A DNA stretch of 64,000 bases from Anaerovoracaceae bacterium (GCA_045112795.1 JBGUIG010000017.1:18323-82322); one strand, 5' to 3'; positions 46,621-62,791 are shown, numbered from the stretch's first letter. Made by a program: numbers and translations. The notes: generated by a model not told the origin, from the letters alone.

Positions 46621-49600
46621 CTATTCCTCATCCTCACGGCGTCTCATTATGAGAAGTCCGCTTCCGCCTGCTGCTGCAAGTGCCATCAGTGCGAGCCATC
46701 CGCCGATGTTGTTGTCGTCGCCTGTCTTAGCGCCAGGTGTTGGCTCTTCTGGCTCTTCCGGTTCTTCAGGTGGTGTGTAGGTGTTGATGAACTCAGCTGA
46801 TCCGCCATCGATTGATACCTTAGCGACCAGTTTACCGTTCTTATCATCTGTTACAGTGATAGTTGCAGTATATACAGAGTCATCATATTCGAAGTTTTCA
46901 ACTTCTGTGTTAACTTCCTTGATCTTGTAGGTGTATGTACCCTCTTCTGTGAACTTGATTCCACCGAAGGTTACATTGCCGTTAGCGTCGTTTGTAGCGG
47001 ATGCTACTACCTCGCCGTCTGTGCTTTCAACTACGAATGCGAACTCTCCCTTAGTAAGGTCTGCGCCTTCGAGTGTCTTGTGTGCTTTGAGGTTGACTGT
47101 AACGTCTTCAGGCTTGTAAGTGTTTACAAAGCTCATTCCGTCTGCGCCGCTCATTGTTGCTGTCAGCTTACCGGCATCTGCATCATAATCAACTTTTACA
47201 GTGAATGTGTAAACAGTTTCGTCATATGTGACTCCGCCAAGGTCGCCCTTAATTTCGGATACAGTGTACTCGTATGTCTTGTCTGCATCCTTAGCTGTGA
47301 AGCTCAGCTGAGGGAATGTGACTTTGCCATCTGCGTCATTAGCAACAACTACGTTAGTGCCGTTACCCTTGAGTCTGAACTGGAACATACCTTCTTTCAG
47401 GTCTTTACCTGTCAGTGTCTTGGTTGCTTCAGGGTTGACTGTTGCAGGGTTTGGCTCGTACTGGTTATTGAATGTGACTACATCGCCATCCGGATATGTG
47501 ACTGCTGTTGTACATGTACCATCGCCGTTGTCTGTGACCTCGATGCTAACGTTATATTCGTTAGTATCATATGTGATCTTTCCGTTTTCAGTCTCAACAA
47601 CGCCTTCATCTTCTGCAGCGTATGCTACGAGCAGGAGTCTCTCGAAGATGCTTCCAGTCTGAACTTCCTCTTCAACCTTAGCTCCTTCACTTGCGGCTGG
47701 TGTTTCTTCTGCGGAAGGTGTTTCTTCTGCGGAAGGTGCTTCAGCCTGTGCTGCATCATCAGTATTTACTTCTTCAGTTGCAGCCGGTGTTCCTTCTTCT
47801 GCAGGTGTTTCTGTCTGAGCTTCTTCCGGTACTGCTTCTGTTCCGGCAGCTCCAGCATTCTCTGATGCTGCATCCTGAGTCTGCTCGCCTTCAGTTGTCT
47901 GTTCGCCTTCAGCCGGCTGCTCTTCTGAAGTGTTCTCTGATCCAGGTACTACCTCTTTGAGTTTGTAAGTGTATGTACCAGGTGTCAGATCCTCAATTTT
48001 GAATGTACCAGTCTGCTCATCCTTAGTCAGAGTCTTGGAATCAATCTTTTCTCCAGTACTGTCGTAGAGATCGATTGTGAACTCTTCTTCATCAGTCCAG
48101 TTCTTGCCCTCGAATACCTTCTTGATATCGATTTCAGCATCGCCCTTAGTGACGTATTCGTTTGTAAATGCTACTGACTCAGGGCTTACTGTAGCTACAA
48201 GCGTTCCGCCCTGGTCTTCTACGGTAACTGTGACAGTGTGCTTTGTCTCATCGTATGTGACGCCGCCAAGCTTGTGCTCGTCGTCAGGAATATCTTCACT
48301 TACAGTGTATTTGTACGTGTCAGCTCTGGTGTAGGTTGCTGAGATTGCAGCCGTACCATCTGCCTTTACAGTTCCTGTGATTCCTTCAGCAGGTACCGGA
48401 TCTCCGGCTACGGTTCCATCAGGTACCATCGTGAATGAGAACTCTCCAGCCTTAAGTGCTCTTACGCCAGTCAGTGTCTTGTTGATATTGACTGTTGCAG
48501 ATACTGGATCAGGTACGTACTTATTGGTGAATACGATCTGAGCTGCAGTCTTGTCAGCTTCTGCAACCAGCTCACCCTCACCATTGTCTGTAACTGTTAC
48601 TGTTACAGGATATTCAGTTGGATCATAGATGATGTTGCCAAGCTTGTGTGTCTTCTCATCAGCGCCCTCAGGGATGTTTTCCTTGATGGTGTAATTGAAG
48701 GACTTGCCTGCATCAGCAAGAGTGTAGTTGATGTCGCCGAAAACAACATTTCCGTCTGCGTCATTTGTACCAGTTGCTATTGGATTGCCTTCTGCATCAT
48801 ATACTGTGAAGCTGAATTCGTCTGGCTGGAGTGTTCTTCCTTCACCCTCGAGTACCTTCGTAGCGCCGAGGTTGATCTTTCCGGTAGCGTCGTAGGTGTT
48901 GGTGAATGTAGCGTTTTCCGGTGTATAAGTAACACTTGTGCTAAGTGTTCCGTCACCATTATCGGTTACACTGACTCTTGCTGTAATCTCATCAGGTGAT
49001 CCTGTCCAGCCAGCGCCGAAGCTGCTCTCTGTTACTGTGTAAGTGTAGGTCTTGCCCGCATCTGCCGCAGTGTATGTAATAGGAGCAAATGTCGCTTTGC
49101 CAGCTGCTGTCAGGTCAACAGTCGTAGTCTCAGGAAGTGTTCCGCCTTCACCTGCGAGTGTGAATGTCAGAGTCTTGCCTTCCGGCCATTCTGCACCAGC
49201 AAGTGCCTTTGTTACTTCGATTACAGCTGAGCCTGAAGCCTCGTATGTATTAGTAATTGTGTCATTTTCCGGATCATATGATACTGCAGTTGAAAGAGTT
49301 CCGTCACCATTGTCTGTTACTTCTACAGTAGCAGTGATATCTCCGGAGCCTGTCCATCCTTTGCCGAAGCCATCCTCGCTGATTGTGTAGGTGTAGGTCT
49401 TGCCTGCATCTGCCTCAGTGTATGTAATGGCTCCGAAGGTTGCCTTTCCAGGCTCACTCAGCGAAACGGTCTTAGTAGTAGGAAGTGTTCCGCCTTCACC
49501 TGCGAGTGTGAATGTGATCGTCTTTCCTGACGGCCATGCTGCGCCATCAATAGCCTTAGTAGCTTCGAGTATTGCAGTACCTGTTGCCGTATAGGTGTTT

Positions 49601-52600
49601 GTGAATGTAGCATCCTCAGGTGAGTATGTTACCTCTGTTCCAAGAGTTCCGTCACCGTTGTCTGTTATTTCTACTGTTGCTGTAATGGAAGCAGGTGTTC
49701 CTGTCCATCCAGCGCCAAAGCCATCTTCAGTAACTGTGTAAGTATATGTCTTGCCTGCATCAGACAGGGCATATTCGATAGGTCCGAATGTTACAGAACC
49801 AGCTGCTGACAGAGTAGCAGTTGTTTCTTCTGGCATTGGTGCATTGCCTGTTCCTTCAAGTGTCAGGGTCAGAGTCTTGCCGCTTGGCCAAGCTGCGCCA
49901 ACAAGTTCCTTAGATACTACGATACTTGCTTCACCATCTGCATCGTATTCGTTAGTGAATGAGAGCTGTACCTGATCGGTTGTAGGTGTGACTGTCAGTT
50001 TGCCTGTGCCATCATCTTCAACGGTGAATGTAAGAGTCTTACCTGTTTCAGCATCAGGGTCATTAGTTACGCCATCTACCTCACCAGACTCAGTAATCTT
50101 GTATTCATATGTGCCAGGCATTGTGAATGTGATTACACCAAACTCATAGTAGCCAGTCTTGCCCTCAAGTTCGTACTCAGCACTATTGGTGATCTCTGTA
50201 TTAGCAGGCATCGGAGCGCCTTCTGTAACTGCCTCGATTGTGAATGTGAAATCGCCTCCGTTATAGAGATCTTCATTGTTTGTGATTATCTTCTGTACCG
50301 GTGGGTCTACCGAAACAGGAGTTGGGTTGTATGTGTTTGTAACTGTGAATGTTACAGTGCCGTCCTCAGCGGTTGTCTTTTCCGGTCCGGACTTGGTATA
50401 TCCTGTAGGAACGGCTGTCTCGTCTGCTGTATAAACGATTTCTTCTCCATCACTATACTTAGGAAGATTCTCCCATGTGTATGTCCACTCGTTATCTTCA
50501 TTGAGTGTAACTGGATCACCGGAAGCCGTTCCGTCAGCCTTGAGCTGTGCCTGAATCGATGCAGGACGGATCTTGCCGATATCATCGGAATCATCCCAAA
50601 CCTTAGCGACTGTAACACTAGTTACCTCCGGCTCATGAGTGTTGGTAATGGTACCATGATCCTCAGCCGGGCTACCTTCAGTGGTATAACCATCGATAGC
50701 AGACTCAGTTACTGTGTACTTTACCTCTTCGCCATTGTCGTAACGTGGCAGGCCAGTGTATGTAATGGTATATGTTCCGTCTTCATTGTCAACAATTGTA
50801 GGCTCTTTGCCTTCTACTGCCGGTGACAGAGTCAGCTTTGCCTTCAGTTCGTCAGCTGTCAGACGCATGCCGTCCTGATCGTCATTATCATCCCACTCCT
50901 TGGTGACCTCGAGATCAGTCAGAGCGTAGTCGTTAGTGTACTTAACAGCATAGCTTGTCTTGGTATTCTCAATCGTACCTGTAGTGGTCTGAGCGCCATT
51001 GAATGTGGAGTCTTCGCCTGTTGTCAGCTCAGAGCTTACGAATGCAAAGTTATCAGCAAGGGTTTCATCAAATGTGTATGTCGTACCAGTAGGCAGGTTC
51101 AGGAAACGCAGGCTCCAACCTGCTCCAATCTCTACATTGAAGGTAGTACCATTTGGTGCATAGTAATATCCGCCGCTGTCTTCTATGACTCCGCTGCCCA
51201 GATCAAGGCCTGTAACACCCTGTCCGTTTTCGTCACGGATCGAGAGCCAGATCCAATAGTCAGACTCATGTTTCGGGTCATCCTGTTCGGAAGGTGCAGT
51301 GGAAGGAGCCTTCGGGTTATTAACTGTAAGTGCGAACGGGAATTTCGCATCCTTAGGTGCATCTTCACCGGTAACGACTTTTGTAAGGTTCAGGTTTGAA
51401 CGACGGTGGTTGACAGCCGTCAGACCTGCTGCATCTTTATCTACATAATATGTAGCGCCCTTAATCGTATATGTATCAGCTCCTGAAGGTGCTGGATGAT
51501 CGTCATCGACCTTGACAAGCATCGTTTTTACGCCGTCAATAAGCATCGGGTGAACAGTAGGGGTTTCAAGTTCCCAATGATACTGAGTATCGTCGAGCTC
51601 AGCGAACTTGAAATCGTGGCCTTCAGCTCCGGAAAGAACCTGACCATCTTTGATAATACCTATGGAAATGAAGGATGATGTTGACCAACCGCTAGCCTCC
51701 GTCATTGTAGTTGTATGGAATGCCTCATTATCCATGAGAACAGTCATCTCAAGGCTGTCTGTGTCTGGATCTCCACCTTCCCACTCCTTGGTTGCGGTCA
51801 GTGTTTCTGCATCAGTTTTAACCGGGTCAGGGTTGGTGTAGCCAGCAGTCTGTCTGCCAGCATCATCACGGGTATCGTCCCACGCAATGCCTGCATTCGT
51901 GTTGGTACGCAGGGAGTATGAACCGCCGCCATTGTCAACGATGTACTTCTTGATCTCGGAATCGAGAGAATCGTAAGTGATATCGCCATTCTTCAGCTGA
52001 GCGATAGTGTCGTAGGTGTACTGGCTAGGATAGCAGTCAAAAGTAACTGTGTACCTTACGCCGTTTTCAAGTACGCCAATCGAGGAGAGATCCCATTCGA
52101 CCTCACCGTTAACGATCTTGGCTTCCGGTGCGTCATTCCAAGGTTCCATGCTACCATGATCTCCGCCCGAACGGTAGTACTTGAAGTTCGGAACGAGTTC
52201 GAGGAGTTCAGCTACCTCGCCGGAGGTTGTAGTTACCTGATTGGTAGTACCATCATCGATCTCAGCGTCAGCAAAGCCTGCCATCTCGATCTTGGCAAGG
52301 ATGTCGGCGATAGCCTGATTCAGAGCTGCAGTATCCTGTGCGCTGTAGTAGTTTGTTGATGAATCTGATCCTGCATCATCAGTCAGCTGCTCCATACGGT
52401 CAACGTTACCGAATGCACCGATGGTAAAGAAGTTTGCAGGTGTAACCTTTGTAGCAAGTGCCTGCGCATCATCAACCGCAGTTGTGTAACATCTCTGAAT
52501 ATTCTGGGTGGTTTCCTGACCAGAACCCCACTGCTGATACTGATAGCTCCAGTCATTCCAGCCGTTCTGTGTTGTACGGAATGTCGGGTTACCATCGGAA

Positions 52601-53145
52601 ACGAACACTGCGAATGTCTGGTCATCATCACCAAAGCTAACTCCATTGGCTGTCTGAAGAGCAGATTCCCAGTTAGTTCCGCCGTTTCCTTGGTTGCCCA
52701 AGCCATTAACGGCACTTCTGAAAGTTGCAGCACTATTCGTAGGCTGCTGCGCAACACTGGATGATGTCGCAAAGCGTACGAGTGCCATCTCAACAGTATT
52801 AGGCTCACTTGCTGTATTGTATGCATACAGTGAGTTAGCCAGGCTGTTGACAGCATTCTTAGCTGCGGTCATTCTCTGCTGTGTCATTGAGCCCGATGTA
52901 TCAACGATAACTATAACGTTGACATTGTTCGGCTTTTTTTCAGATTCACCGACGATGTCAAGTGATATCGTATAGGTACCGTCCTGATTGTCGGTGATGT
53001 TCTTGGTGTGCGGCGGGGTGCTGCCAGCTGCCGCATAGGCTGTACTGTTTAAGAACAGTCCCGGTATCATTGTCCATACCATCATGAATGACAGCAAGGT
53101 AGTGAATACCGAGTTCACCCATCTTTTTCTTCTTGTCTCTTTCAT
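46621..53145 (-). CDS. giant wall-anchored adhesin: N-terminal vWFA domain, CnaB-type domains, many Spy0128/FctA-type repeats
   Basis: Signal peptide. MIDAS motif VIVDTSGSM with downstream GGTNWESAL and VFVSDGNPT (vWFA). Two clear CnaB blocks (VTKEWDDNDDQDG...YTVTESAIDGYT; VAKVWDDSDDIGKIRP...YTADETAVPTGYT). At least 12 repeats of the F.FT(L/V)...P.P....ATF..I.Y...G.Y.Y.V.E type. Sorting signal: GAKTGDD, TM segment, RRREDEE. Confidence 0.85.
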   Translation of the reverse strand: MKETRRKRWVNSVFTTLLSFMMVWTMIPGLFLNSTAYAAAGSTPPHTKNITDNQDGTYTISLDIVGESEKKPNNVNVIVIVDTSGSMTQQRMTAAKNAVNSLANSLYAYNTASEPNTVEMALVRFATSSSVAQQPTNSAATFRSAVNGLGNQGNGGTNWESALQTANGVSFGDDDQTFAVFVSDGNPTFRTTQNGWNDWSYQYQQWGSGQETTQNIQRCYTTAVDDAQALATKVTPANFFTIGAFGNVDRMEQLTDDAGSDSSTNYYSAQDTAALNQAIADILAKIEMAGFADAEIDDGTTNQVTTTSGEVAELLELVPNFKYYRSGGDHGSMEPWNDAPEAKIVNGEVEWDLSSIGVLENGVRYTVTFDCYPSQYTYDTIAQLKNGDITYDSLDSEIKKYIVDNGGGSYSLRTNTNAGIAWDDTRDDAGRQTAGYTNPDPVKTDAETLTATKEWEGGDPDTDSLEMTVLMDNEAFHTTTMTEASGWSTSSFISIGIIKDGQVLSGAEGHDFKFAELDDTQYHWELETPTVHPMLIDGVKTMLVKVDDDHPAPSGADTYTIKGATYYVDKDAAGLTAVNHRRSNLNLTKVVTGEDAPKDAKFPFALTVNNPKAPSTAPSEQDDPKHESDYWIWLSIRDENGQGVTGLDLGSGVIEDSGGYYYAPNGTTFNVEIGAGWSLRFLNLPTGTTYTFDETLADNFAFVSSELTTGEDSTFNGAQTTTGTIENTKTSYAVKYTNDYALTDLEVTKEWDDNDDQDGMRLTADELKAKLTLSPAVEGKEPTIVDNEDGTYTITYTGLPRYDNGEEVKYTVTESAIDGYTTEGSPAEDHGTITNTHEPEVTSVTVAKVWDDSDDIGKIRPASIQAQLKADGTASGDPVTLNEDNEWTYTWENLPKYSDGEEIVYTADETAVPTGYTKSGPEKTTAEDGTVTFTVTNTYNPTPVSVDPPVQKIITNNEDLYNGGDFTFTIEAVTEGAPMPANTEITNSAEYELEGKTGYYEFGVITFTMPGTYEYKITESGEVDGVTNDPDAETGKTLTFTVEDDGTGKLTVTPTTDQVQLSFTNEYDADGEASIVVSKELVGAAWPSGKTLTLTLEGTGNAPMPEETTATLSAAGSVTFGPIEYALSDAGKTYTYTVTEDGFGAGWTGTPASITATVEITDNGDGTLGTEVTYSPEDATFTNTYTATGTAILEATKAIDGAAWPSGKTITFTLAGEGGTLPTTKTVSLSEPGKATFGAITYTEADAGKTYTYTISEDGFGKGWTGSGDITATVEVTDNGDGTLSTAVSYDPENDTITNTYEASGSAVIEVTKALAGAEWPEGKTLTFTLAGEGGTLPETTTVDLTAAGKATFAPITYTAADAGKTYTYTVTESSFGAGWTGSPDEITARVSVTDNGDGTLSTSVTYTPENATFTNTYDATGKINLGATKVLEGEGRTLQPDEFSFTVYDAEGNPIATGTNDADGNVVFGDINYTLADAGKSFNYTIKENIPEGADEKTHKLGNIIYDPTEYPVTVTVTDNGEGELVAEADKTAAQIVFTNKYVPDPVSATVNINKTLTGVRALKAGEFSFTMVPDGTVAGDPVPAEGITGTVKADGTAAISATYTRADTYKYTVSEDIPDDEHKLGGVTYDETKHTVTVTVEDQGGTLVATVSPESVAFTNEYVTKGDAEIDIKKVFEGKNWTDEEEFTIDLYDSTGEKIDSKTLTKDEQTGTFKIEDLTPGTYTYKLKEVVPGSENTSEEQPAEGEQTTEGEQTQDAASENAGAAGTEAVPEEAQTETPAEEGTPAATEEVNTDDAAQAEAPSAEETPSAEETPAASEGAKVEEEVQTGSIFERLLLVAYAAEDEGVVETENGKITYDTNEYNVSIEVTDNGDGTCTTAVTYPDGDVVTFNNQYEPNPATVNPEATKTLTGKDLKEGMFQFRLKGNGTNVVVANDADGKVTFPQLSFTAKDADKTYEYTVSEIKGDLGGVTYDETVYTFTVKVDYDADAGKLTATMSGADGMSFVNTYKPEDVTVNLKAHKTLEGADLTKGEFAFVVESTDGEVVASATNDANGNVTFGGIKFTEEGTYTYKIKEVNTEVENFEYDDSVYTATITVTDDKNGKLVAKVSIDGGSAEFINTYTPPEEPEEPEEPTPGAKTGDDNNIGGWLALMALAAAGGSGLLIMRRREDEE
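48893..49950. repeat. three tandem ~350-bp coding repeats inside the 2174-aa adhesin gene
   Basis: The period is visible from near-identical DNA starting at 49052, 49400 and 49751 (for example cttgcc.gcatctgcc.cagtgtatgtaat). The encoded units are ...AWP.GKT.TFTLAGEGGTLP...AGKTYTYT..E..FG.GWTG...TDNGDGTLST... Confidence 0.85.
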
Positions 53146-53274
53146 AATTACTTCCCCTTAGCCTTCAAAATTTCCATCCAATAGTTTAACTAAAATATAG
53201 GTATTTATAGGATGATGGGCAAAAGCTGCGGCGGACAATTTCTTCGCAAAAATGATCCTTTTACTGCATTACGT

Positions 53275-53313
53275 CGCGTTTAATGCGCAACAAAACAATA
53301 GAAATGTCGCAGT
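53275..53313 (-). promoter_or_regulatory. CGCAAC-type phased hexamers upstream of the vWFA adhesin gene (site B1)
   Basis: CGCGTT (53275), CGCAAC (53286) and CGCAGT (53308) sit on an 11/22-bp register. The core reads TGCGCAACAAAAC. Confidence 0.3.
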
Positions 53314-53348
53314 TTGCCTTTATACATATCGTATACTACCCGTAATCA

Positions 53349-53365
53349 CGCATCGCAAGCGCAAC
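53349..53365 (-). promoter_or_regulatory. CGCATC-N5-CGCAAC direct repeat upstream of the vWFA adhesin gene (site B2)
   Basis: CGCATC at 53349-53354 and CGCAAC at 53360-53365, an 11-bp spacing, followed by AAAAA. Confidence 0.35.
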
Positions 53366-53612
53366 AAAAATGGGTGTTTTTGTCGTTTCCTTTACATAAT
53401 TTAATAAAATATTTTGCATCTTTTATCATCCATTAGCATTATCTTCCTAATTGTCCATTTTTCTTCATTTTTTAACGCTTTCATATACTTATCTATCATT
53501 TTCGTAATGCATACGGTACTCTAATGGTGAAGCTATATCTAGCAGCAAAGTCATTCTTGTGTCATATCAAAGTTCACAAGAAATGACTCACATCTGGCAT
53601 AGTATGAGCGTA

Positions 53613-53638
53613 CAAAAAGAGGGAGTATAGCTCCCTCT
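53613..53638 (-). terminator. rho-independent terminator after the regulator gene
   Basis: On the minus strand, AGAGGGAG-ctata-CTCCCTCT hairpin followed by TTTTTG. Confidence 0.75.
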
Positions 53639-53693
53639 AATCTAATCAGTTTACATGGATTAAAAGATTCCGGGCAGCGAAATGCGCAACATG

Positions 53694-54473
53694 CTACTTC
53701 TGCAGCTGGTACAGGCTTCCGCTTGTCATTTCTGCCCATGAATACTGGGCCATATATTCGCCTCTGAAACGGTCACGTTCTTTCTTATCACCCTCTAGGA
53801 AATCGTAATAATCACATGAAAGCTTCTCAACATTAACTGCCCATGTGTTCCATTGCTTTACAAGGATATCTGCAGCACCCACAGCATCCAGATCTTTTCT
53901 CAGGCTTGACATGATCATTCTGCACTGTGACTTGAGGTTCTTATCGACTACCCTGTTTTCCCAAAGCGTATTGCATATCTCATTAATAGTACATGCAGCA
54001 CCTCTGCGGTCCACAAGATATGCAAGAGCTTCTTTGCCGAGTGACCGGCTGAAGCGAATAGCAACACCATCGGACATCGCTTCAAAGTTTCCGAAGCACT
54101 GTATTCTGAGATTTTTTGATGGCTGAACAGGATATCTGAGATTCTGCAGTTCCGCTAAAACCTTCCCTTCTTCAACCGGCTCAAGAATAAATCCACTGGC
54201 ATGCACACGGAATGCTTCAGCTGCATTATGCATATCATCAGAAATAAATATCCAGTTAATACCTGCTGGCAGCTCATCCGAATCTGCAGTGAAAGCAAAA
54301 CTGTCAGGCGAAGCATCAAGCCATACAACATCAGGCTTTGACGCACCAATCGAAGCTCTTAGTTCATCAAAACTATCTACGAAACTGAATTGACCACGCG
54401 GATCAAAATATTGAGACGAACCCTCAATAATCCTGGCCACTTCTATATTTGAGACAAAACAAACCGATATCAT
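53694..54473 (-). CDS. orphan response-regulator-like transcription factor: atypical receiver plus SARP/OmpR-type winged helix
   Basis: The wHTH block is LRIQCFGNFEAMSDGVAIRFSRSLGKEALAYLVDRRGAACTINEICNTLWEN...LRKDL. The N-terminal receiver-like fold keeps the putative acceptor Asp (VVWLDA), but lacks the acidic pair (CFVSN instead of DD/DE) and has Glu where the conserved Lys sits (GFILEP). The start is either ATG 54473 (GGGGG 8 nt upstream) or GTG 54488. Confidence 0.75.
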   Translation of the reverse strand: MISVCFVSNIEVARIIEGSSQYFDPRGQFSFVDSFDELRASIGASKPDVVWLDASPDSFAFTADSDELPAGINWIFISDDMHNAAEAFRVHASGFILEPVEEGKVLAELQNLRYPVQPSKNLRIQCFGNFEAMSDGVAIRFSRSLGKEALAYLVDRRGAACTINEICNTLWENRVVDKNLKSQCRMIMSSLRKDLDAVGAADILVKQWNTWAVNVEKLSCDYYDFLEGDKKERDRFRGEYMAQYSWAEMTSGSLYQLQK

Positions 54474-54563
54474 TGTCTGTACCCCCACATCAATGATTTG
54501 CCCCTCACAAATAAGAAGTTATCTCCCCTTATAACATATGATACCCTATTATTGAACAATTAG

Positions 54564-54590
54564 CGCAACAAATGCGCACCTATTGTTGCG
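54564..54590 (-). promoter_or_regulatory. CGCAAC-N5-CGCACC direct repeat plus inverted GTTGCG upstream of the regulator gene
   Basis: CGCAAC 54564-54569 and CGCACC 54575-54580 (11-bp spacing), plus GTTGCG 54585-54590 (inverted). On the minus strand the cluster lies just upstream of a candidate TTCAAT-17-TGTTATAAG promoter. Confidence 0.35.
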
Positions 54591-54671
54591 TTTGTTCCTC
54601 GCTTCGGAACAGACCGCCAAACTTTACCCCATGTTCATGTGATCTATCGCAATTTGACGATTTTTTGCACA

Positions 54672-54722
54672 ATAAAACAGGAAGACGAAACCCTGATTGA
54701 TTCCGTCTTCCTGTTTTGTTTT
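54672..54722 (-). terminator. rho-independent terminator after the 2484-aa adhesin gene
   Basis: AAAACAGGAAGACG (54675-54688) pairs with CGTCTTCCTGTTTT (54704-54717). The stem sequence is the same as in the 46531-46568 terminator. Confidence 0.8.
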
Positions 54723-54829
54723 GTCGATGCTCAGATAATCGTCATTCGTTAATCGATCAGATTACCTGATCTCGAACGCCTCCGTTGCTTTAGAGGTTTG
54801 ATTTTCTGTTAGAAGAAAGTCTGTATAGA

Positions 54830-57800
54830 CTATTCCTCGTCGCTTCTTCTTCTGCGGATGAAGAGTGCACCGAAGAGTGCTACGACTGATGCGAAGAATC
54901 CGCCAACCATTCCTGGGATGTTAGTGTCATCGCCAGTCTTGACGCCTGTTGTAGGCTCAGCTTCAGGTTCAGCTACTGGAACTGTCTTCTCGCCAGGTAC
55001 AACAGTTGGGTATGGATGGTTAGGATCGTCAGTTGTTCCGGTTGCTGTTGCAATGTTAGTAACTGATCCGTTCTTAGCATCTTCTTCTGTTACTGTGTAC
55101 TCGCAGTTGAATGTCTGGCTCTTGTCTGGTGCAAGGCTCTCAATGTTCCATGCATCGCCTGTCAGATCATCCTTAACCTCGATATCCTTAACAGTCAGGT
55201 TACCGTCGTTAGTTACTGTGATTTCATAAGTAACAGTCTCGCCTACCTCGTAGCTCTTGCCATTTGCAGGAGTGCTTGTTGTTTCCTTAACCACAGTCAG
55301 ATGTGGGTTGCTCTCATCTGTAGGATCTTCAGTAGTTCCCGGTACGATCTCAGGCTTTGGTGCCTCAGGGTCCTTAGGTTCTGCTGTTGCAGTTGCCTCG
55401 TTCTTAACGACGCCTGCAATGATATCCTTCTCAGTTACTGTGTGCTCTGTTGTGAATGTCTTGGATTCGCCAGGAGCAAGCTCTTCTACTGACCAAGCAT
55501 CACCAGTCAGTTCGTCAGTAACTTCGATGTTCTTGAGAGTCATGTTGCCATCGTTAGTAGCCTTGACTTCGTAAGTGATTGTTTCGCCAAGAGCATATGT
55601 CTTGCCGTTAGCAGGTGTACTTGTAGTCTTCTTGTCTATTGTCAGATGGCTCTTAGGATCTTCTACGTCTACCTTGTCTTCCGGCTCATATGGCTTGTCT
55701 ACGCCACTGAACTCAACGGTAGCCTTGTTGTTGAACTCTCCTGCGAGGATGTCAGCTTCTGTTACTACGTATTCTGCAGTTACAGTTACCTTAGCGCCTG
55801 GCTCAACATCCTTGAATTCGCTCTCAGATGTGATTGTAACTCCCGGCTGCTCAGTAACAGTGATGTCCTTCTTCTCTGCGTAGATATTAGTTACCTCGAT
55901 AGTGAATACTACTTTTTCGCCCAGCTTGTATTCCTTATCTTCGTGCTTCTTAGTAGCTACCTTGTCGACAGGAACGTCTTCATCAGTTACTTCAAGAGTT
56001 CCATACTTAACAGTGATGTTGTAGTTGTCCGCATTAGTAGCCTTTGTTGCTTTGTAGGTTGTTTCATCATCTGCATCAACACCTGTAAGCTTAGCAAACA
56101 GTTTTCTGGTTGGTGTGAACAGCTTATAAGTGAATGTGTTATCTGATGTTCCTACATATGTCTGAGATCCAGTTACATCGATTGATGCAAGACCTTCGCC
56201 ATCTACGAAGCCATCGATTGTCATTTCATCGTGCTTAGTAAGCGGTGTTCCGTCGTATACCTTCTTTGCAGAAGCAGATTCGATTGTTACATCGATAGGC
56301 TCGATCTTGAGGCTTCCGTCGTTTACAACGAACTCAACGTTTGTGAAGTTCTTGGAGATGTTCTCGAAGTCTCCTGCCTTGAGTCCCATTGGGTAGCTGT
56401 CAACATCGTCTCCGGACTTCTTAACGTCTGTGCCCTTTGCTGTAGCATCGCCGCTGAATGTGAAGTCTTCCTCAGTGTACAGCTCGTTGTCGATGCTTAC
56501 ATCGTAGCCTTCTACCTTCTGCTCAGCACCGTTGTAGTCAACGTCATCCTTGTGACCTGTGATTGTAACAGTAACCTTGTCAGTTACAGGTGTTACAGTC
56601 AGAGTTCCTACGGACTGAGTGATGTCATAGTTGTCAGCCTTTGTTCCTTCATTCAGAGTGTAGCTGAAGGAGTTCTGGCTTGAGCCTACATCTGTCTGTG
56701 TTCCGGTTACATCGTACTTAGCGCCTTCGCCGTCTGCGAATCCGTCGCCGCCAACTGTTACCTCATCGTTAGTAAGAGCCTTACCGTCATATACCTTTTC
56801 ATCTGTAGCAGATGTCAGGGTGACTGTTCTCTTGCTGATCTCGAGTGTTCCGTCAACGATCTGGAATGTAACCTTAGTGAAGTTCTTGTTGTTGTTTGTG
56901 AAGTCTGTCGGCTTCAGTTCCATATCATAGCTGCCTGCGTCTGTTCCCTTTACAGTAGCGTCGCCGCTGAATGTGAAGTCAGACTCTTTGTACAGGTCGC
57001 TGCTGATGCTTGTTACTTTGTAGCCTGTTACAGTCTTCTCTGTTCCGTCGTACTTCTCGCTGCCGCTGTTCTCTGTGATAACAACAACTACTTCCTTCTC
57101 GTCTGCAGTTACGGTCAGAGTACCTTCAACCTGAGTGATTTCATAGTTGTCAGCCTTTGTGCCCTTGTTCAGAGTATAAGTGAATGTGTTCTTGCTTGAA
57201 CCAGCGTCAGTCTGAGTACCAGTTACATCGTATGTTGCGCCTTCGCCTTCGACGAATCCGTCACCAGTCTCTGTAACCTTGTCATTAGTAAGAGCCTTGC
57301 CGTCATATGTCTTGCTGTCTGTTGCAGAAGTCATTGTGACTGTTCTCTTGCTGATTTCAAGTGTTCCGTCAACGATTACGAACTCTACGTTGGAGAAGTT
57401 CTTGCTTATGTTGGTGAAGTCTTCCGGTGTGAGCTCCATGTCGTATGAACCGGCATCTGTGCCCTTTACAGTAGCGTCACCATCGAATGTGAAGTCATTC
57501 TCAGTGTACAGTGGGTTGCTGATCTCAACTGTGTAGCCCTCAACGGTCTTCTCAGTTCCATCATACTTAGCTGTACCGCTGTTCTCTGTGATTGTTACAG
57601 TAACCTTGTCAGTTACAGGTGTAACTTCCAGAGTGCCTTCTGTCTTAGTAATTGTGTAGTTTGCAGCCTTAGTGCCTTCGTTCAGAGTGTAGTCGAACTT
57701 GTTTGCACTTGAGCCAACATTGGTCTGAGTACCAGTTACATCGTATGTAGCGCCTTCGCCTGTTGCGAATCCGTCGCCACCGACTGTTACCTCATCATTT

Positions 57801-60800
57801 GTAAGAGCTGTTCCGTCATAGACCTTTTCGTCATCAGCTGATGTCAGAGTGACTGTTCTCTTGCTGATCTCGAGTGTTCCGTCAACGATTACGAACTCTA
57901 CGTTTTTGAAATTCTTGTTTGTGTTAGTGAAGTCTTCTGGCTTGAGCTCCATTGGATATGAGCCTGCATCAGTTCCCTTTACAGTGTCATTTCCACTGAA
58001 TGTGAAGTCATCCTCAGTGTAAAGCTCATTGTCGATTGAAACAGTGTAGCCTGTTGCAGTCTTCTCTGTTCCATCGTACTTCTCGCTTCCGCTGTTCTCA
58101 GTAATTGTTACTGTGACCTTATCAGTGAGCTCAGTTACTGTCAGAGTTCCTTCAGTCTTAGTGATTGTGTAGTTATCAGCCTTAGTGCCGTTGTTCAGAG
58201 TGTATGTGAACTTATTAGCACTTGAGCCAACTTCTGTCTGTGATCCGGTTACATCATATGTAGCGCCTTCGCCTGATACGAAACCGTCGCCACCGACTGT
58301 GACTTCATCATTTGTAAGAGCTGTTCCGTCATATACCTTACTGTCTGTAGCAGATGTCAGGGTAACAGATCTCTTAGTAATTGTAAGCTTGAGAGTTCCG
58401 TCAGTTACTCCGCCATCTTCAGGAAGTACATACTTATCAGCTGCAGAGCTTGCAATCGTAATTGTTCCTGTTACAGAACCATTATACGTACCAACATCTG
58501 TACCCTTTGCAGAATCAACGCTAGGAGTAAATGTAACTCCATCAGGCAGCTTTTCAACTTCCTGGTCGCCTACAAAGTATTTAACAGTGTATTCATCGTT
58601 GCTCTGCTGTTTGCCATTATACTTCTGAGTATCTTCAGATCCGGTAATCTCTACTCTTACCTCAGCAGCCCATACAGCAAACATTGCATGATATGGAGTC
58701 TTCTCGTCAGCAGCTACCTCTGTAACAACATCTCCGTCGGCACTGCCAAGATGGAACTGGCTGCCATCATAGTACAGGTACATGTTCTGATCTGCATTGT
58801 CCTGTGTCCAGTTGCTCTGGTTTGCTTCCCAAGCCTTTGATGATTCAGGATCATTTCCAGCCGGAATACGAGCCCAGCCCTTGAACACATAACCTTCACG
58901 AGTCTGTGCCGGTTCAATATTTACAGCTTTATTGATTGCAAGATTATCATCCTTATGGAATGCCTCTGTGCCATCATTCTTGTACCAGTAAATATGTGTA
59001 GGTGTTGGTGTATCCTTAGGAGTATATTCTGCTCTGAGCTGTACAGTATACTTCTTAGTTACTTCAGGTTCATCTTCAGTTGGTGTAATATCCTCAACTT
59101 TAGCGTTTGCTCTGAGAACTTCGAATGTATCTCCAGGATATACGAACTGGTCAGTATCCTCAAATTTGGTTCCGTTCCATTTCTGAACTACCCAGTATAC
59201 AAACTGTTCATCTTCACTTGCAGGTGTAGATGCTCCCTGTGCAATAGCATTTGTCTTATCTTTGTAGAGAAGATCATCCTTTGGAGCTCCTGATCCACCA
59301 TTAGCATCGTATACCACATTGATACCCTTTGCGCCTGGAATCGTTGAACGCCACTTAGCATACAGGTCAAGGCTCTTTGTGATCCAGAAACGATCAGTAT
59401 CCTTGTTAACATTCTCTGTTACATTGCCATACTTATCAGTTTCTGTGGATCTTGACTTATCATAAGCCGTAACGCCAGGTGTGGAATCTGTAAGCGGATA
59501 TGCCTCAGAACTGAAGATTTTGGTACATCCTTCATCATAGTACCATCCCATCAGTTCATAATCATCTCTGGTAGCAGGAGTCAACTGAACTTCTTCGCCA
59601 TATGATACACGGAAGGATGTTGCCTGATCTCCCATCTGATACGAGGTGTCAGATGTTGGTACATTCGGATGCAGGAATACACGGTACTCTACCTGTCTCC
59701 ATTTAGCATAAACTGTTATACCTTCCGGCATGTTTGTGAACGTATATGGCTGAGTGCAAGCATCATCTGCATACCAGCCTTCGAAGGCGAATGCATTAAA
59801 TTTAGGTTCGTAATAGTTTGCACCGCCTTTGTTGTAACTGGCAACGCTAGACTCGAAGTTAATCTTCTCAGCAACATGCAGCTGGCCTCTGTCATCCATG
59901 TCAGTAAGAACGTTGCCGTCACCGTCAACATATACTCCATCCATGAAGAGAATGTTGTATGTCAATGGAGCATAACGGATGTACAGATTAGTGTAATCGG
60001 TTACTGTTGCATAATAGCCAGAGCTATCTTTCTCACCAAGATTTGTCCAGTTTGTGCCATTCTTACTGTACTGTACTGCTTTGTATCCATTGTATTTATC
60101 AGAGATATAGAATGTACCACCATTACTAATATCTACAGTATTTGTAGCAGTCGTTGGGTATGTGCCATCTGCATTCTGCTTGTAGAAGTAGACATGGTTA
60201 TTTCCGTTTCCACCAAATCCATAGAATGTCTGGCTGGAACTGTCATCTGACAGCTTAAAAGCATCCAGGAATGTGGTACGTGTACCAGAACCTTCATATC
60301 CACTCCAAGTCTGTCGATATGATTCATACCACCAGCGATTGGTCGGCCATGTATAACCCTGTGATGCAAGAGTCTGACCATAGAGACCTGTCATAGTGGT
60401 CTGAGTTGCCCAGCTGTTTCCGTTACGATACTGGAAAGTCAGTGTTACGAGATTACGATCATAGTAAACATTGACTACAGAGCTGCCTGTTGCATCAATA
60501 GTAACATTTGTATCATATTTATTAAGATGGAATCCCGGGTAACTCTTAGCTACTCCATTTACAGATGCATATCTACCGTCTCCGGAACCTGTAGCTGTAA
60601 CAGTATTAATAGTGCTGCCAACATTTCCGGAAAGTGTAACAGATTCGCCAAAATCATAAGTTTTAGCGCTGTCTGCTGCATCCTTAGCATCCTTTACGCT
60701 CTGCTTCCAGATGATAACAGTATAATTTGCTGTCTCAACTTCTTTCCATTTAGCGTAGAGGTAAGTCTTTGTATCAATTCCGGATCCGAATGTAAACTTA

Positions 60801-62284
60801 CTGCCTGTCGGGTCGCCACCTACTTCGCTAGGTTCACCAGTATACCATCCGTCGAATTCATATCCGAGTCTGGATGGATCAGCCGGCTCTTCTGTCACCT
60901 TACCTGTTTCAATAAACTGTGCAACAGTATAGGTTGCTCCCTTACCGTTCTCTTTGAAGATGAGGTAATTGCCCTTAGGTGCCTTTGCTGTAAGTGTTAC
61001 ATTACCATTAACCTTGAGCTTGGTACCTACCTGCTGTGCCTCGTTTGAAGGTATTGGTTTTCCGTCAACATCAGTAGCAGCGCCTGAAACAAACCAGCCC
61101 TGGAATTGCTGGATATCCGGGTTCTCAGGCTCGTATGTCATATTGATCTCAAAATCTTCTGTTGATCCGTTAACACCAAGAACTGTTACTGAATCGATGA
61201 TTGTTCCTGTTTCACTCTTATAAGTGACAGTATATGCATCGAGAATCACAGCATGAACATAATACTTGTCGCCTTCAGTTATTGAAAGGCCTTCGAAGTA
61301 CTTACGTACTTCTTCGATGTTCATTGTTTTTGTCTTAGTGTCGTATGATGCTGTTGCGTCCTTGCTGACAATCCAGCCTTTGAAAATCTTTCCTGCAGCT
61401 AATTCGCCAACGCCTGGATCATAGATGATCTCTTCCAGCTCGTCTAATGTGTCAGCGTTCTTTACATATACTGTAGCTCTCTCAGTGTCTCCACTCTTGA
61501 AGATAACTTCTGCACGAGCGTTTCCAGAAGTATCACCTTCTTCAACAACAGCATATACCGAGAACTGATCTGTTACGACTTTAGCGATGCCTGCTTTGTT
61601 GACTGTAGCGTCGTCAACAACTTCAGCAGGGCCATTGTCTGGAATGTGGACTACTGCATTTGCATTGTCCAGTCCGGATGCGTTCAGATAGACATGTACA
61701 GGAACCTTAGGCTCAACATCTTCTCCGTCTTTGACGAAGGTGATGTCAACGGCCTTGAATCCGGTGACTTCGCCATCAACTGCATCCTTAACAGCCTGCT
61801 CAACAGCCTTTGTGTTAGCAGGTGTTACGACCATTTCAGTGCCTTCCGGGAGAGCACCTTCTGGCGCTTTAACGAGAACCTTTACTCCGCCCTTGTCGGC
61901 ATTAAAGGTCTGCGCCGGGAACGATACTTCCTTCTCAGGCTCTGTGGTCTCCTCTGCAGGAGTTTCTTCAGCAGGTTCTTCAACCTGTTGTTCTTCCTCT
62001 GCAGGGGCCTGTTCCTCTTCGACTGCAGGTTCCTCCTCAACTGGTGCAGGTGCAGGTTCAGCAACCTCTTCCTGTACCGGGGCAGGTTCTTCAGTCGTCA
62101 CTTCGTCCTGTGGGGCCGGAGCTTCGGTGTTGGCAGCGTTGTCAACAACCTCTTCAGCGACTGGCTGCTGTGGTGCTTCATTTTCAGCATATGCGATCAG
62201 ATTGACCGGCATATACGTGATCACCATTGCAACCGACAGGGCAAAGGCAAGGAATCTTTTCAGATACTTGTGATTGTCTTTCAT
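54830..62284 (-). CDS. giant wall-anchored adhesin: Listeria-Bacteroides (Flg_new) repeats, ~172-aa YDG repeats, DUF11-like repeats
   Basis: Signal peptide, then a Pro/Glu/Ala-rich spacer. Several G(W/Y)...LYAKW(K/R) repeats (for example YEFDGWYTGEPSEV...TYLYAKWKE). Five units of ISKRTVTLTSA.D.KVYDG.ALTNDEVTVGGDGF.... Three Y.(L/V)GE.(I/V).(F/Y).(I/V)..TN.(G/Y)N(M/L)T.K.I.V.D DUF11-type modules. Sorting signal: GVKTGDD, TM segment, RRRRSDEE. RBS AAGGGGAAAG. Confidence 0.85.
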   Translation of the reverse strand: MKDNHKYLKRFLAFALSVAMVITYMPVNLIAYAENEAPQQPVAEEVVDNAANTEAPAPQDEVTTEEPAPVQEEVAEPAPAPVEEEPAVEEEQAPAEEEQQVEEPAEETPAEETTEPEKEVSFPAQTFNADKGGVKVLVKAPEGALPEGTEMVVTPANTKAVEQAVKDAVDGEVTGFKAVDITFVKDGEDVEPKVPVHVYLNASGLDNANAVVHIPDNGPAEVVDDATVNKAGIAKVVTDQFSVYAVVEEGDTSGNARAEVIFKSGDTERATVYVKNADTLDELEEIIYDPGVGELAAGKIFKGWIVSKDATASYDTKTKTMNIEEVRKYFEGLSITEGDKYYVHAVILDAYTVTYKSETGTIIDSVTVLGVNGSTEDFEINMTYEPENPDIQQFQGWFVSGAATDVDGKPIPSNEAQQVGTKLKVNGNVTLTAKAPKGNYLIFKENGKGATYTVAQFIETGKVTEEPADPSRLGYEFDGWYTGEPSEVGGDPTGSKFTFGSGIDTKTYLYAKWKEVETANYTVIIWKQSVKDAKDAADSAKTYDFGESVTLSGNVGSTINTVTATGSGDGRYASVNGVAKSYPGFHLNKYDTNVTIDATGSSVVNVYYDRNLVTLTFQYRNGNSWATQTTMTGLYGQTLASQGYTWPTNRWWYESYRQTWSGYEGSGTRTTFLDAFKLSDDSSSQTFYGFGGNGNNHVYFYKQNADGTYPTTATNTVDISNGGTFYISDKYNGYKAVQYSKNGTNWTNLGEKDSSGYYATVTDYTNLYIRYAPLTYNILFMDGVYVDGDGNVLTDMDDRGQLHVAEKINFESSVASYNKGGANYYEPKFNAFAFEGWYADDACTQPYTFTNMPEGITVYAKWRQVEYRVFLHPNVPTSDTSYQMGDQATSFRVSYGEEVQLTPATRDDYELMGWYYDEGCTKIFSSEAYPLTDSTPGVTAYDKSRSTETDKYGNVTENVNKDTDRFWITKSLDLYAKWRSTIPGAKGINVVYDANGGSGAPKDDLLYKDKTNAIAQGASTPASEDEQFVYWVVQKWNGTKFEDTDQFVYPGDTFEVLRANAKVEDITPTEDEPEVTKKYTVQLRAEYTPKDTPTPTHIYWYKNDGTEAFHKDDNLAINKAVNIEPAQTREGYVFKGWARIPAGNDPESSKAWEANQSNWTQDNADQNMYLYYDGSQFHLGSADGDVVTEVAADEKTPYHAMFAVWAAEVRVEITGSEDTQKYNGKQQSNDEYTVKYFVGDQEVEKLPDGVTFTPSVDSAKGTDVGTYNGSVTGTITIASSAADKYVLPEDGGVTDGTLKLTITKRSVTLTSATDSKVYDGTALTNDEVTVGGDGFVSGEGATYDVTGSQTEVGSSANKFTYTLNNGTKADNYTITKTEGTLTVTELTDKVTVTITENSGSEKYDGTEKTATGYTVSIDNELYTEDDFTFSGNDTVKGTDAGSYPMELKPEDFTNTNKNFKNVEFVIVDGTLEISKRTVTLTSADDEKVYDGTALTNDEVTVGGDGFATGEGATYDVTGTQTNVGSSANKFDYTLNEGTKAANYTITKTEGTLEVTPVTDKVTVTITENSGTAKYDGTEKTVEGYTVEISNPLYTENDFTFDGDATVKGTDAGSYDMELTPEDFTNISKNFSNVEFVIVDGTLEISKRTVTMTSATDSKTYDGKALTNDKVTETGDGFVEGEGATYDVTGTQTDAGSSKNTFTYTLNKGTKADNYEITQVEGTLTVTADEKEVVVVITENSGSEKYDGTEKTVTGYKVTSISSDLYKESDFTFSGDATVKGTDAGSYDMELKPTDFTNNNKNFTKVTFQIVDGTLEISKRTVTLTSATDEKVYDGKALTNDEVTVGGDGFADGEGAKYDVTGTQTDVGSSQNSFSYTLNEGTKADNYDITQSVGTLTVTPVTDKVTVTITGHKDDVDYNGAEQKVEGYDVSIDNELYTEEDFTFSGDATAKGTDVKKSGDDVDSYPMGLKAGDFENISKNFTNVEFVVNDGSLKIEPIDVTIESASAKKVYDGTPLTKHDEMTIDGFVDGEGLASIDVTGSQTYVGTSDNTFTYKLFTPTRKLFAKLTGVDADDETTYKATKATNADNYNITVKYGTLEVTDEDVPVDKVATKKHEDKEYKLGEKVVFTIEVTNIYAEKKDITVTEQPGVTITSESEFKDVEPGAKVTVTAEYVVTEADILAGEFNNKATVEFSGVDKPYEPEDKVDVEDPKSHLTIDKKTTSTPANGKTYALGETITYEVKATNDGNMTLKNIEVTDELTGDAWSVEELAPGESKTFTTEHTVTEKDIIAGVVKNEATATAEPKDPEAPKPEIVPGTTEDPTDESNPHLTVVKETTSTPANGKSYEVGETVTYEITVTNDGNLTVKDIEVKDDLTGDAWNIESLAPDKSQTFNCEYTVTEEDAKNGSVTNIATATGTTDDPNHPYPTVVPGEKTVPVAEPEAEPTTGVKTGDDTNIPGMVGGFFASVVALFGALFIRRRRSDEE
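56100..58400. repeat. about 4.5 tandem ~515-bp coding repeats inside the 2484-aa adhesin gene
   Basis: The landmark (c/t)tc(g/a)agtgttccgtcaacgat recurs at 56840, 57356 and 57869 (spacings 516 and 513 nt). Diverged copies lie near 56305 and 58385. Confidence 0.85.
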
Positions 62285-62365
62285 TTTTCTTTCCCCTTAG
62301 CAACGTAATAAGAAATAAGTGATAATTTATAACTGGCTAATGTTGTGCGGATTTTTCGAATTTCG

Positions 62366-62382
62366 CGCAACAAAAGCGCATC
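62366..62382 (-). promoter_or_regulatory. CGCAAC-N5-CGCATC direct repeat in the leader of the 2484-aa adhesin gene
   Basis: CGCAAC 62366-62371 and CGCATC 62377-62382, an 11-bp spacing, about 85-100 nt upstream of the ATG. Confidence 0.35.
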
Positions 62383-62654
62383 GTTAAACAAAGTAATTTT
62401 AACACAACGACAGCAAAAGCGTTGTTCTTTTAATTGGTCATTAACAGCTTTTTCATGCTGTTTTAGACCTATTAATCTGATATTCCATTTACCTCTGAAA
62501 CCTTGAATGAAAAACCAGTCAGGATGTCCTGACCTTGTAGTGCATCTCTATTGTTAAAGGAGCCAAGATACACCCATCAATCGCTATTCCGGGTAAATTA
62601 CGCAAGCGCTGATCAATTTGTCCTAAAGTTTCCCCATTGTCTTAATGCTAGCTA

Positions 62655-62695
62655 ATTGTAGCAAATCCGCAACATTTACGCAACCAAAGCGCAAC
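62655..62695 (-). promoter_or_regulatory. three perfectly phased CGCAAC repeats overlapping a candidate promoter of the 2484-aa adhesin gene
   Basis: CGCAAC at 62668, 62679 and 62690 (11 + 11 bp). On the minus strand the middle repeat supplies TTGCGT as a -35 box, 17 nt upstream of TACAAT (62660-62655). This implies a leader of about 360 nt. Confidence 0.45.
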
Positions 62696-62731
62696 ATTAT
62701 TAATAAAAATACATTTTTCCACACAATGAAA

Positions 62732-62762
62732 CAGCCGGCACGAATAATTATCATGCCAGCTG
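62732..62762 (-). terminator. candidate terminator after the DMT transporter gene
   Basis: On the minus strand, CAGCTGGCA...TGCCGGCTG hairpin followed by TTTCATTG. Confidence 0.5.
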
Positions 62763-62791
62763 AAAACAATCAGTTCTGTATTAATTAATGA

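Follow-up and report, generated by a model that had tools for sequence, protein, structure and literature searches.

We report a short phased DNA repeat at a surface-protein locus of an Anaerovoracaceae bacterium (GCA_045112795.1; draft genome of 2.81 Mb in 169 contigs, 46.6% G+C). The window, i.e., the whole stretch of DNA analyzed, comprises 64,000 nucleotides (nt) of one contig (C17:18323-82322). It contains a gene for a giant surface protein of 2484 amino acids (aa), a gene for a 259-aa regulator, and a predicted sortase-pilus operon that begins with a gene for a 2174-aa protein. Upstream of each of these three units are copies of the heptamer GTTGCGC, or weaker forms of it, spaced by 11 base pairs (bp). 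These repeats probably represent the operator of the adjacent regulator, which would control its own gene, the pilus operon and the 2484-aa adhesin gene.

All genes of the locus are on the minus strand, and on this strand the repeat unit is GTTGCGC preceded by a mostly T-rich 4-nt spacer. The resulting 11-bp unit is repeated head to tail, and the weaker heptamers are GATGCGC/T, GGTGCGC and GTTGCGT/G. A first-pass annotation of this DNA had listed the repeats as plus-strand hexamers, CGCAAC and its variants, and every position was correct: 62668, 62679, 62690, 62366 and 62377 upstream of the 2484-aa gene; 54564, 54575 and an inverted copy at 54585 upstream of the regulator gene; 53349, 53360, 53275, 53286 and 53308 upstream of the 2174-aa gene; and 53685 just after the regulator gene. 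Gene order and terminators define the three long intergenic regions of the locus (53146-53693, 54489-54829 and 62285-62791; 1,396 nt in sum) as the upstream regions of three transcription units.

The same annotation had placed the signal in phasing and clustering and not in the number of hexamers, and our counts agree with this view. Single CGCAAC hexamers in the window (31) are near expectation, and pairs at 11 bp are in excess. With one mismatch allowed, CGCAAC-N5-CGCAAC occurs 6 times in the window versus 0.29 +/- 0.57 times in 100 dinucleotide shuffles, and this number was reached in 0/100 shuffles. Ten such pairs were found in the entire genome, five of them within the 1.4 kb of intergenic DNA of the locus, where each other spacing between 6 and 30 bp gave 0 or 1 pair. 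At the same stringency, the 14-nt dimer GTTGCGC-N4-GTTGCGC occurs four times genome-wide, including three times at the locus. The extended core, an 8-mer (GCGCAACA), has 57 copies in the genome and 11 in the window; the three intergenic regions contain six copies, on the plus strand in every case. The phased motif is clearly more common here than in other intergenic DNA of this genome.

We attach almost no credence to the explanation that the clustering is due to chance or is a functionless by-product of duplicated or repeat sequence. The count of single hexamers is indeed what chance would give, but the shuffles, the spacing control, the genome-wide dimer scan and the conservation in orthologs described below refute this explanation. 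In addition, the only sequences common to all three intergenic regions are the motif (10-16 nt) and a ribosome-binding site; the regions therefore do not contain a common duplicated segment, repeat or mobile element. A duplication or mobile element as the source of the motif was ruled out on this basis, the regions being otherwise dissimilar. A search for a wider regulon in the genome, with the dimer relaxed to three mismatches, yielded noise with codon periodicity only.

At two of the three units, the boxes have the same position relative to predicted promoter elements. At both the regulator gene and the pilus operon, the proximal heptamer is followed after 9 nt by a -10 box, and a -35 box is absent. 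The box pair of the regulator gene, (N)NTGCGC-(A/T)TTT-GTTGCGC, is preserved in orthologs with 95, 88, 65 and 52% identity, the closest relatives of the regulator, which come from metagenome contigs. In the 65% and 52% loci, the sequence surrounding this box is unrelated. Its -10 box is found at the same offset in orthologs (GATAAT in L035 and TAACAT in L036). Likewise, the pilus box has the consensus GTTGCGC-TT(G/A)C-GATGCGT across three orthologs, and L035 has TAATAT at the offset of the pilus -10 box. Since the heptamers are located 9 nt from a -10 box that lacks a -35 box, we infer activation by -35 replacement at these two promoters. Two regulator protomers would bind head-to-tail on two GTTGCGC-type heptamers 11 bp apart; the bound dimer would then recruit RNA polymerase in lieu of a -35 contact, in the manner of PhoB and SARPs. 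The predicted outcome is positive autoregulation together with activation of the pilus operon.

Three further groups of heptamers near these promoters have other arrangements. A cluster in the leader of the pilus operon, designated D1, corresponds to about +14 to +53 of the predicted transcript and has no -10 box at the activator distance. Its 22 + 11 phasing is kept in L033 (ATTGCG three times), and L035 keeps the central GTTGCGC only. The copies at 53685 and 54585, which had been counted as members of the signal, are not kept in close orthologs and are probably incidental. We also observed a sigma-70-like promoter (TTGCCC, 17 nt, TATATT; 53194-53222, minus strand), which precedes the 2174-aa gene by about 50 nt and is conserved in L033 (TTGCCC...TATATC). 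Thus, the pilus operon may have a second, box-independent promoter downstream of D1.

The layout found at these two promoters recurs beside relatives of the regulator. At E <= 1e-10, 1648 homologous proteins were identified. The best 120 of these have 42-95% identity, mostly over at least 90% of the length; most contain PF00072, and the name 'two-component SAPR family response regulator' has been given to several of them. Judged by sequence, the regulator belongs to a clostridial family with a receiver, a winged helix and a BTAD stub (JGI name 'SAPR family response regulator'). Of 301 genomes from the host's taxonomic family, 77 contain a homolog. A full-text literature search found no published study of clostridial 'SAPR family' regulators.

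The intergenic DNA next to 30 distant homologs (25-45% identity), 10.2 kb in total, contains seven exact 7-mer direct repeats with a spacing of 11 bp and 0-2 with each other spacing from 7 to 33 bp. When 31.6 kb from 20-kb homolog loci were scanned for 8-mer repeats matching at 7 or more of the 8 positions, 28 were found at 11 bp versus 1-12 at other spacings. All such sites inspected (14/14) read, in sense orientation, heptamer, 4 nt, heptamer, 9 nt and TANNNT, with no -35 box, and an automatic count of offsets agrees. This promoter grammar, which was derived in the present analysis and is not a published definition, applies to the regulator and pilus promoters, to the 14 sites of distant homologs and to sites of the closer clade. 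Homologs with 47-52% identity whose loci were fetched have the same recognition-helix residues and GT(T/A)GCGC boxes in other genomic contexts. An automatic scan of this clade yielded 20 site entries, including several duplicate contigs or close orthologs, and 17 of them have the 9-nt gap; the sites are located before the regulator gene and before a downstream VWA adhesin gene.

Across the family, the heptamer varies by lineage (GTTACGG, AATGCGG, CCGACAC, GTCACGA, GTTGTGC, GTGCAGT and GTTGGAC). It tracks the recognition helix, and the same helix is associated with the same heptamer even across genera. An alignment of 45 homologs (43-95% identity) shows no variation at the recognition-helix residues K186, Q188 and R190 and almost none at S187 and C189. 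Genes downstream of the regulators in this family include those for giant SLH, Flg_new and GLUG surface proteins, a GGDEF sensor and an Hpt protein. Canonical homologs (47-51% identity) have PF00072 and are followed by a gene of about 230 aa and a PF06580 histidine kinase gene. The loci L060, L062 and L064 are syntenic, with a giant adhesin, the regulator, the ~230-aa gene without a Pfam domain, the PF06580 kinase and a second giant adhesin; in L062, an open frame of 8805 aa runs off the locus. In the locus of a distant homolog, L043, the box CCGACGC / CCGACAC occurs twice, at 8036 and 10437, each 9 nt from a TATTAT or TATTCT -10 box. One is located after the regulator gene, and the other is on the opposite strand, before a divergent 587-aa gene upstream of the kinase-regulator pair.

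The regulator itself has no Pfam match at default thresholds. Below the curated cut-offs, weak sequence matches were detected to Trans_reg_C (E of 0.014) and to the winged helix of AfsR (E of 0.013-0.14), as well as a weak match to a receiver domain, with no Pfam Response_reg match. An AlphaFold model based on a 46-sequence alignment has a predicted local distance difference test (pLDDT) score of 86. It shows a receiver fold of alternating strands and helices (residues 7-115) and an OmpR-type winged helix (127-218; strands 127-139, helices 151-202 and wing 209-218), followed by a short helical tail of about 40 residues in which residues 243-264 have pLDDT below 50. In Foldseek searches with this model, the full-length OmpR/PhoB regulators DrrB, RpaA, VanR, KdpE, PrrA and PhoP were the top matches (E of 1e-8 to 1e-5), and the SARP domain of AfsR (8hvr_I) matched with an E of 2e-5 and 23% identity. 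BTAD (PF03704) was not detected in the protein even at E <= 10, and the C-terminal segment CDYYDF...GEYM...YSWAE looks like the start of this domain. The label 'SARP-like' given in the first-pass annotation is therefore apt for the winged helix and does not extend to a true SARP, since BTAD is reduced to a stub. The regulator is a non-canonical protein of the OmpR/PhoB type and not a bona fide SARP.

Compared with 45 homologs, the phospho-acceptor pocket of the regulator is not intact. It has SN in place of DD and Glu in place of Lys of 'LKP'. The acceptor Asp, in the segment VVWLDAS, is retained, and five residues are deleted after it. These changes are common to the closest clade (P0002-P0005, P0014, P0018 and P0025), whereas more distant homologs have a canonical pocket and are located beside a kinase gene. 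No histidine kinase gene was found among Pfam-matched open reading frames (ORFs) at 39565-63685, which encode adhesin, pilin, sortase, signal peptidase and EamA proteins (one 234-aa ORF was unmatched). The changed pocket in a receiver-like fold thus points to a pseudo-receiver in a protein that is SARP-like in its DNA-binding part. The regulator is an orphan, probably phosphorylation-independent protein composed of a pseudo-receiver and a winged helix.

It is highly improbable that the boxes are read by a different protein encoded elsewhere, such as another OmpR-family regulator or an alternative sigma factor that uses GTTGCG as its -35 element, and that the adjacent regulator has nothing to do with them. 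This possibility draws on the upstream region of the 2484-aa gene, where TTGCGN resembles a -35 box and is located 17 nt from a -10 box. However, dozens of unrelated loci have lineage-specific 11-bp repeats next to a regulator of the family, and these repeats vary together with the recognition helix. A tblastn search of the genome revealed no clear paralog (the best other match had an E of 0.066 over 39 residues). Moreover, at the two canonical promoters the heptamers are 9 and 20 nt from the -10 box, and neither distance fits a -35 box of the sigma-70 type. A role of the heptamers as -35 elements for a sigma factor was rejected at these two promoters, and the triple site upstream of the 2484-aa gene is still compatible with it.

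The upstream region of the 2484-aa gene differs in its geometry from the two canonical promoters. At the triple site, the middle repeat supplies a -35-like TTGCGT. As the first-pass annotation had claimed, this box is located 17 nt from TACAAT, and a preceding TG makes the latter an extended -10 box. With its own -35 and extended -10 boxes, this promoter looks self-sufficient. An ortholog of the 2484-aa gene in L057, whose N-terminal region is 80% identical, keeps three blocks in its upstream region, which is otherwise diverged: the distal repeats together with TTTGCTACAATT, the box proximal to the gene along with the adjoining upstream sequence, and the ribosome-binding site. The block TTTGCTACAATT, which is situated at the extended -10 box, is identical in L057. 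The triple site has the form GTTGCGG-ttt-GTTGCGC, 7 nt, TACAAT in L057 and GTTGCGA-aaat-GTTGCGG, 6 nt, TACCAT in L059, and the relation TTGCGN, 17 nt, TAC(A/C)AT is kept in L057, L059 and L060. This arrangement, which we designate type II, is known from four loci only (the window, L057, L059 and L060). A scan of public genomes for GTTGCG-N5-GTTGCG-N7-TACMAT returned eight matches, which come without exception from unrelated phyla and can be attributed to chance.

Closer to the gene, a second box pair, designated site B, is located 13 nt downstream of another conserved extended -10 box, that is, at about +8 to +25 of a putative second promoter. A similar layout precedes a Flg_new adhesin gene in L036 (TATAAT, 11 nt, GTTGCAC-attt-GCAGCAT). 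The leader of about 360 nt that had been proposed for the 2484-aa gene is uncertain in length, since the second conserved -10 box is only about 105 nt upstream of the ATG; if this box is used, the leader could be as short as ~105 nt. Inside the long leader, there is a terminator-like hairpin at 62517-62534 on the minus strand (GGTCAGGACATCCTGACT followed by GGTTTTTC), which is not conserved in L057 and has no Rfam match. An Rfam scan of positions 53000-63000 at E <= 1 gave one meaningless snoRNA match and no structured leader RNA.

Because the triple site lies on a promoter that appears self-sufficient and site B lies past another -10 box, repression of the 2484-aa gene is as likely as activation. 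From the positions of the triple site, site B and D1, we infer that these boxes would fit repression or modulation better than activation. The regulator would more likely dampen or otherwise modulate transcription of the 2484-aa gene than switch it on. The opposite view, that the regulator activates all three units, with the triple site acting as a SARP-style box across the -35 region and the 3-bp offset being tolerated or tuning the strength of activation, appears unlikely to us. If transcription starts 7 nt after the -10 box, the proximal two 11-bp units of the triple site (each a 4-nt spacer and a heptamer) span -40 to -19, which are the coordinates of the afs box (PMC10936776), and the layout recurs in L057, L059 and L060. 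However, this promoter needs no activator, since TTGCGN is already followed at 17 nt by an extended -10 box. The prevalence of the 9-nt gap among the scanned clade entries, the 10-bp spacing of the repeats in L057 and the location of site B downstream of a conserved -10 box also argue against activation of all three units. The canonical activator geometry is found at the regulator and pilus promoters. The triple site, from which an OmpR/SARP architecture with overlap of the -35 box had been proposed, has a 6-nt gap and its own -35 and extended -10 boxes.

The contrast between the two types of sites allows a more far-reaching reading, which we offer as a tentative and rather doubtful one. An orphan pseudo-receiver regulator, driven solely by its own positive feedback, might act as a toggle between the two giant adhesins. 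Where the boxes are in the activator register, with a 9-nt gap to the -10 box, they would turn on the regulator gene and the VWA-tipped pilus operon. The 3-bp-shifted boxes on the self-sufficient promoter, together with the box at +8 to +25, would shut down the 2484-aa Flg_new/DUF7507 adhesin, and the weak boxes in the pilus leader would add negative feedback. Such a toggle would produce bistable, phase-variation-like heterogeneity of the cell surface without DNA rearrangement.

Returning to the repeats as the operator of the neighboring regulator, this proposal of the first-pass annotation was strengthened by the footprints in orthologs, the family-wide 11-bp repeats, the co-variation of helix and heptamer and the GT(T/A)GCGC boxes in other loci. 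Several observations weigh against it. Every -10 box and transcription start discussed here is predicted from sequence, and the sites could in principle be recognized by a different OmpR-family protein encoded in the genome. The co-variation of recognition helix and heptamer follows phylogeny and is therefore not independent evidence. The triple site, with its 6-nt gap, departs from the 9-nt rule, and the spacing of its heptamers in L057 is 10 bp and not 11 bp. For site B, no -10 box is conserved at the activator distance: the window has only a weak AAAAAT there, with an 8-nt gap, and L057 has none. Finally, the sole other perfect pair in the genome, outside the window at C115:14021-14044 (GCGCAACAAAT-ACGCAACAAAG), faces the terminator of a 662-aa gene and lacks a -10 box at 9 nt, so not every pair represents a promoter.

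The features of the locus are listed in Table 1. The 2174-aa protein resembles a pilus tip adhesin, and its gene is the first of the sortase-pilus cluster. It is followed by genes for pilin-like, sortase, SipA-like signal peptidase and FctA-domain proteins, an ORF without a Pfam domain and an 804-aa DUF7601 gene. The regulator ORF in the ORF list is longer than the form used here, with a GTG start at 54488. Both giant ORFs start with ATGAAAGA and share the ribosome-binding context gctaaggggaa on the gene strand (62291-62301 and 53152-53162); apart from this context and the boxes, their upstream regions have no other likeness.

Table 1. Genes, boxes and predicted promoter elements of the locus, in order along the minus strand
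Feature	Position in window	Strand	Remarks
EamA transporter gene	62792-63685	-	terminator 62762-62732
Triple box, type II: GTTGCGC (62695-62689), GTTGCGT (62684-62678), GTTGCGG (62673-62667)	62667..62695	-	11 + 11 bp
Extended -10 TGcTACAAT	62655..62663	-	6 nt past proximal heptamer, 17 nt past TTGCGT; predicted start near 62648
Second conserved extended -10 TGtTAAAAT	62396..62404	-	TGcTACAAT in L057; 13 nt upstream of site B
Site B box GATGCGC-tttt-GTTGCGC	62365..62382	-	GATGCGC-tttt-GGTGCGT in L057
2484-aa surface protein gene, DUF7507/DUF11 and Flg_new repeats	54830..62284	-	putative target; terminator 54695-54678
Inverted GTTGCG copy upstream of regulator box	54585..54590	+	not kept in L031 or L033
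Regulator promoter box, type I: GGTGCGC-attt-GTTGCGC	54563..54580	-	conserved, always 9 nt from -10
Regulator promoter -10 AATAAT	54548..54553	-	9 nt past proximal heptamer, no -35; predicted start near 54541
Regulator gene	53694..54473	-	259-aa form from ATG at 54473; terminator 53638-53618
Single GTTGCGC, 4 nt past regulator stop codon	53684..53690	-	in L032 (95%), not in L033/L034 (88%)
Pilus-operon promoter box, type I: GTTGCGC-ttgc-GATGCGT	53348..53365	-	conserved in L032, L033 and L035
Pilus promoter -10 TAGTAT	53333..53338	-	9 nt past proximal heptamer; predicted start near 53326, leader ~180 nt
Leader cluster D1: ACTGCGA, 22 bp, GTTGCGC, 11 bp, AACGCGA	53274..53313	-	one strong and two weak heptamers
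2174-aa protein gene, VWA, Cna_B and FctA domains	46621..53145	-	putative activated target

Two observations were made outside the window. The C115 pair is located 270 nt upstream of a TnpB-like gene (IS200/IS605 OrfB-type). At C78:5100-5250, there are odd short tandem repeats (aatatagaaatatag..., taaatagttaaatag... and attaatagattaatag...), which directly follow a GTTGCGCTTGCGGTATAAT sequence and are upstream of a 431-aa ORF.

The mechanism proposed here is a classical one of the PhoB/SARP type, and the advance is in annotation and regulon prediction and not in principle. Nevertheless, the analysis provides a concrete, testable wiring diagram for the control of a sortase-pilus operon and a giant adhesin in an uncultured gut/rumen-type bacterium of the Bacillota; it names the binding site and promoter grammar and predicts positive autoregulation. 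As the grammar is common to many relatives, it could be used to predict regulons across this family of ~1,600 homologs, which are repeatedly found beside genes for giant surface proteins. Only the geometry of the sites at the 2484-aa gene goes beyond the ordinary, in that it hints at dual activation and repression.

Regulators with comparable genomic positions are known from pilus islands of Gram-positive bacteria, e.g., RofA/Nra and MsmR of the Streptococcus pyogenes FCT region and EbpR of Enterococcus. As in these islands, a stand-alone regulator is situated here amid sortase, pilin and SipA-like genes and presumably controls them. RofA/Nra, MsmR and EbpR belong to other families (RALP/Mga-like and AraC) and use other types of sites, and our analysis found no homology of the regulator with them.

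The closest published rule for the sites themselves is that of SARPs: their direct repeats are spaced by 11 or 22 bp, and 8 bp separate the 3' repeat from the -10 box (PMC10936776). As with AfsR at afsS, and with ActII-ORF4 and DnrI, all of Streptomyces, the sites consist of direct heptamers on the sense strand at 11 or 22 bp, and the proximal repeat is at a fixed short distance from the -10 box, where it replaces or overlaps the -35 box (PMC10936776). Direct repeats with these spacings are present at the locus, and D1 shows both (22 + 11). The winged helix of the regulator resembles that of AfsR. Unlike SARPs, the regulator has no Pfam BTAD, with a low-confidence tail of ~40 aa in its place, and has an N-terminal receiver-like domain. 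The gap to the predicted -10 box is 9 nt, close to but not equal to 8, at the regulator and pilus promoters and in 17/20 clade entries, and 6 nt at the triple site; the host is a member of the Bacillota, and adhesin and pilus genes take the place of antibiotic clusters as targets.

PhoB of Escherichia coli, like the regulator, combines a receiver with a winged helix, and OmpR/PhoB regulators are the best Foldseek matches. The pho box consists of two 7-bp direct repeats with a 4-bp A/T-rich spacer, replaces the -35 box and is located about 10 bp upstream of the -10 box. The heptamer-4 nt-heptamer layout at the locus is close to this arrangement. In contrast to PhoB, the receiver has SN instead of DD, Glu instead of Lys and a 5-residue loop deletion, the locus has no histidine kinase gene, and the protein carries an extra SARP-like tail. 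At ompF and ompC, OmpR is a single regulator that activates or represses according to the position of its sites. Unlike in OmpR, the dual role suggested here derives from site geometry, with no apparent phosphorylation input; as in OmpR, a single small regulon would combine phased tandem sites in activating positions with others in potentially repressing ones.

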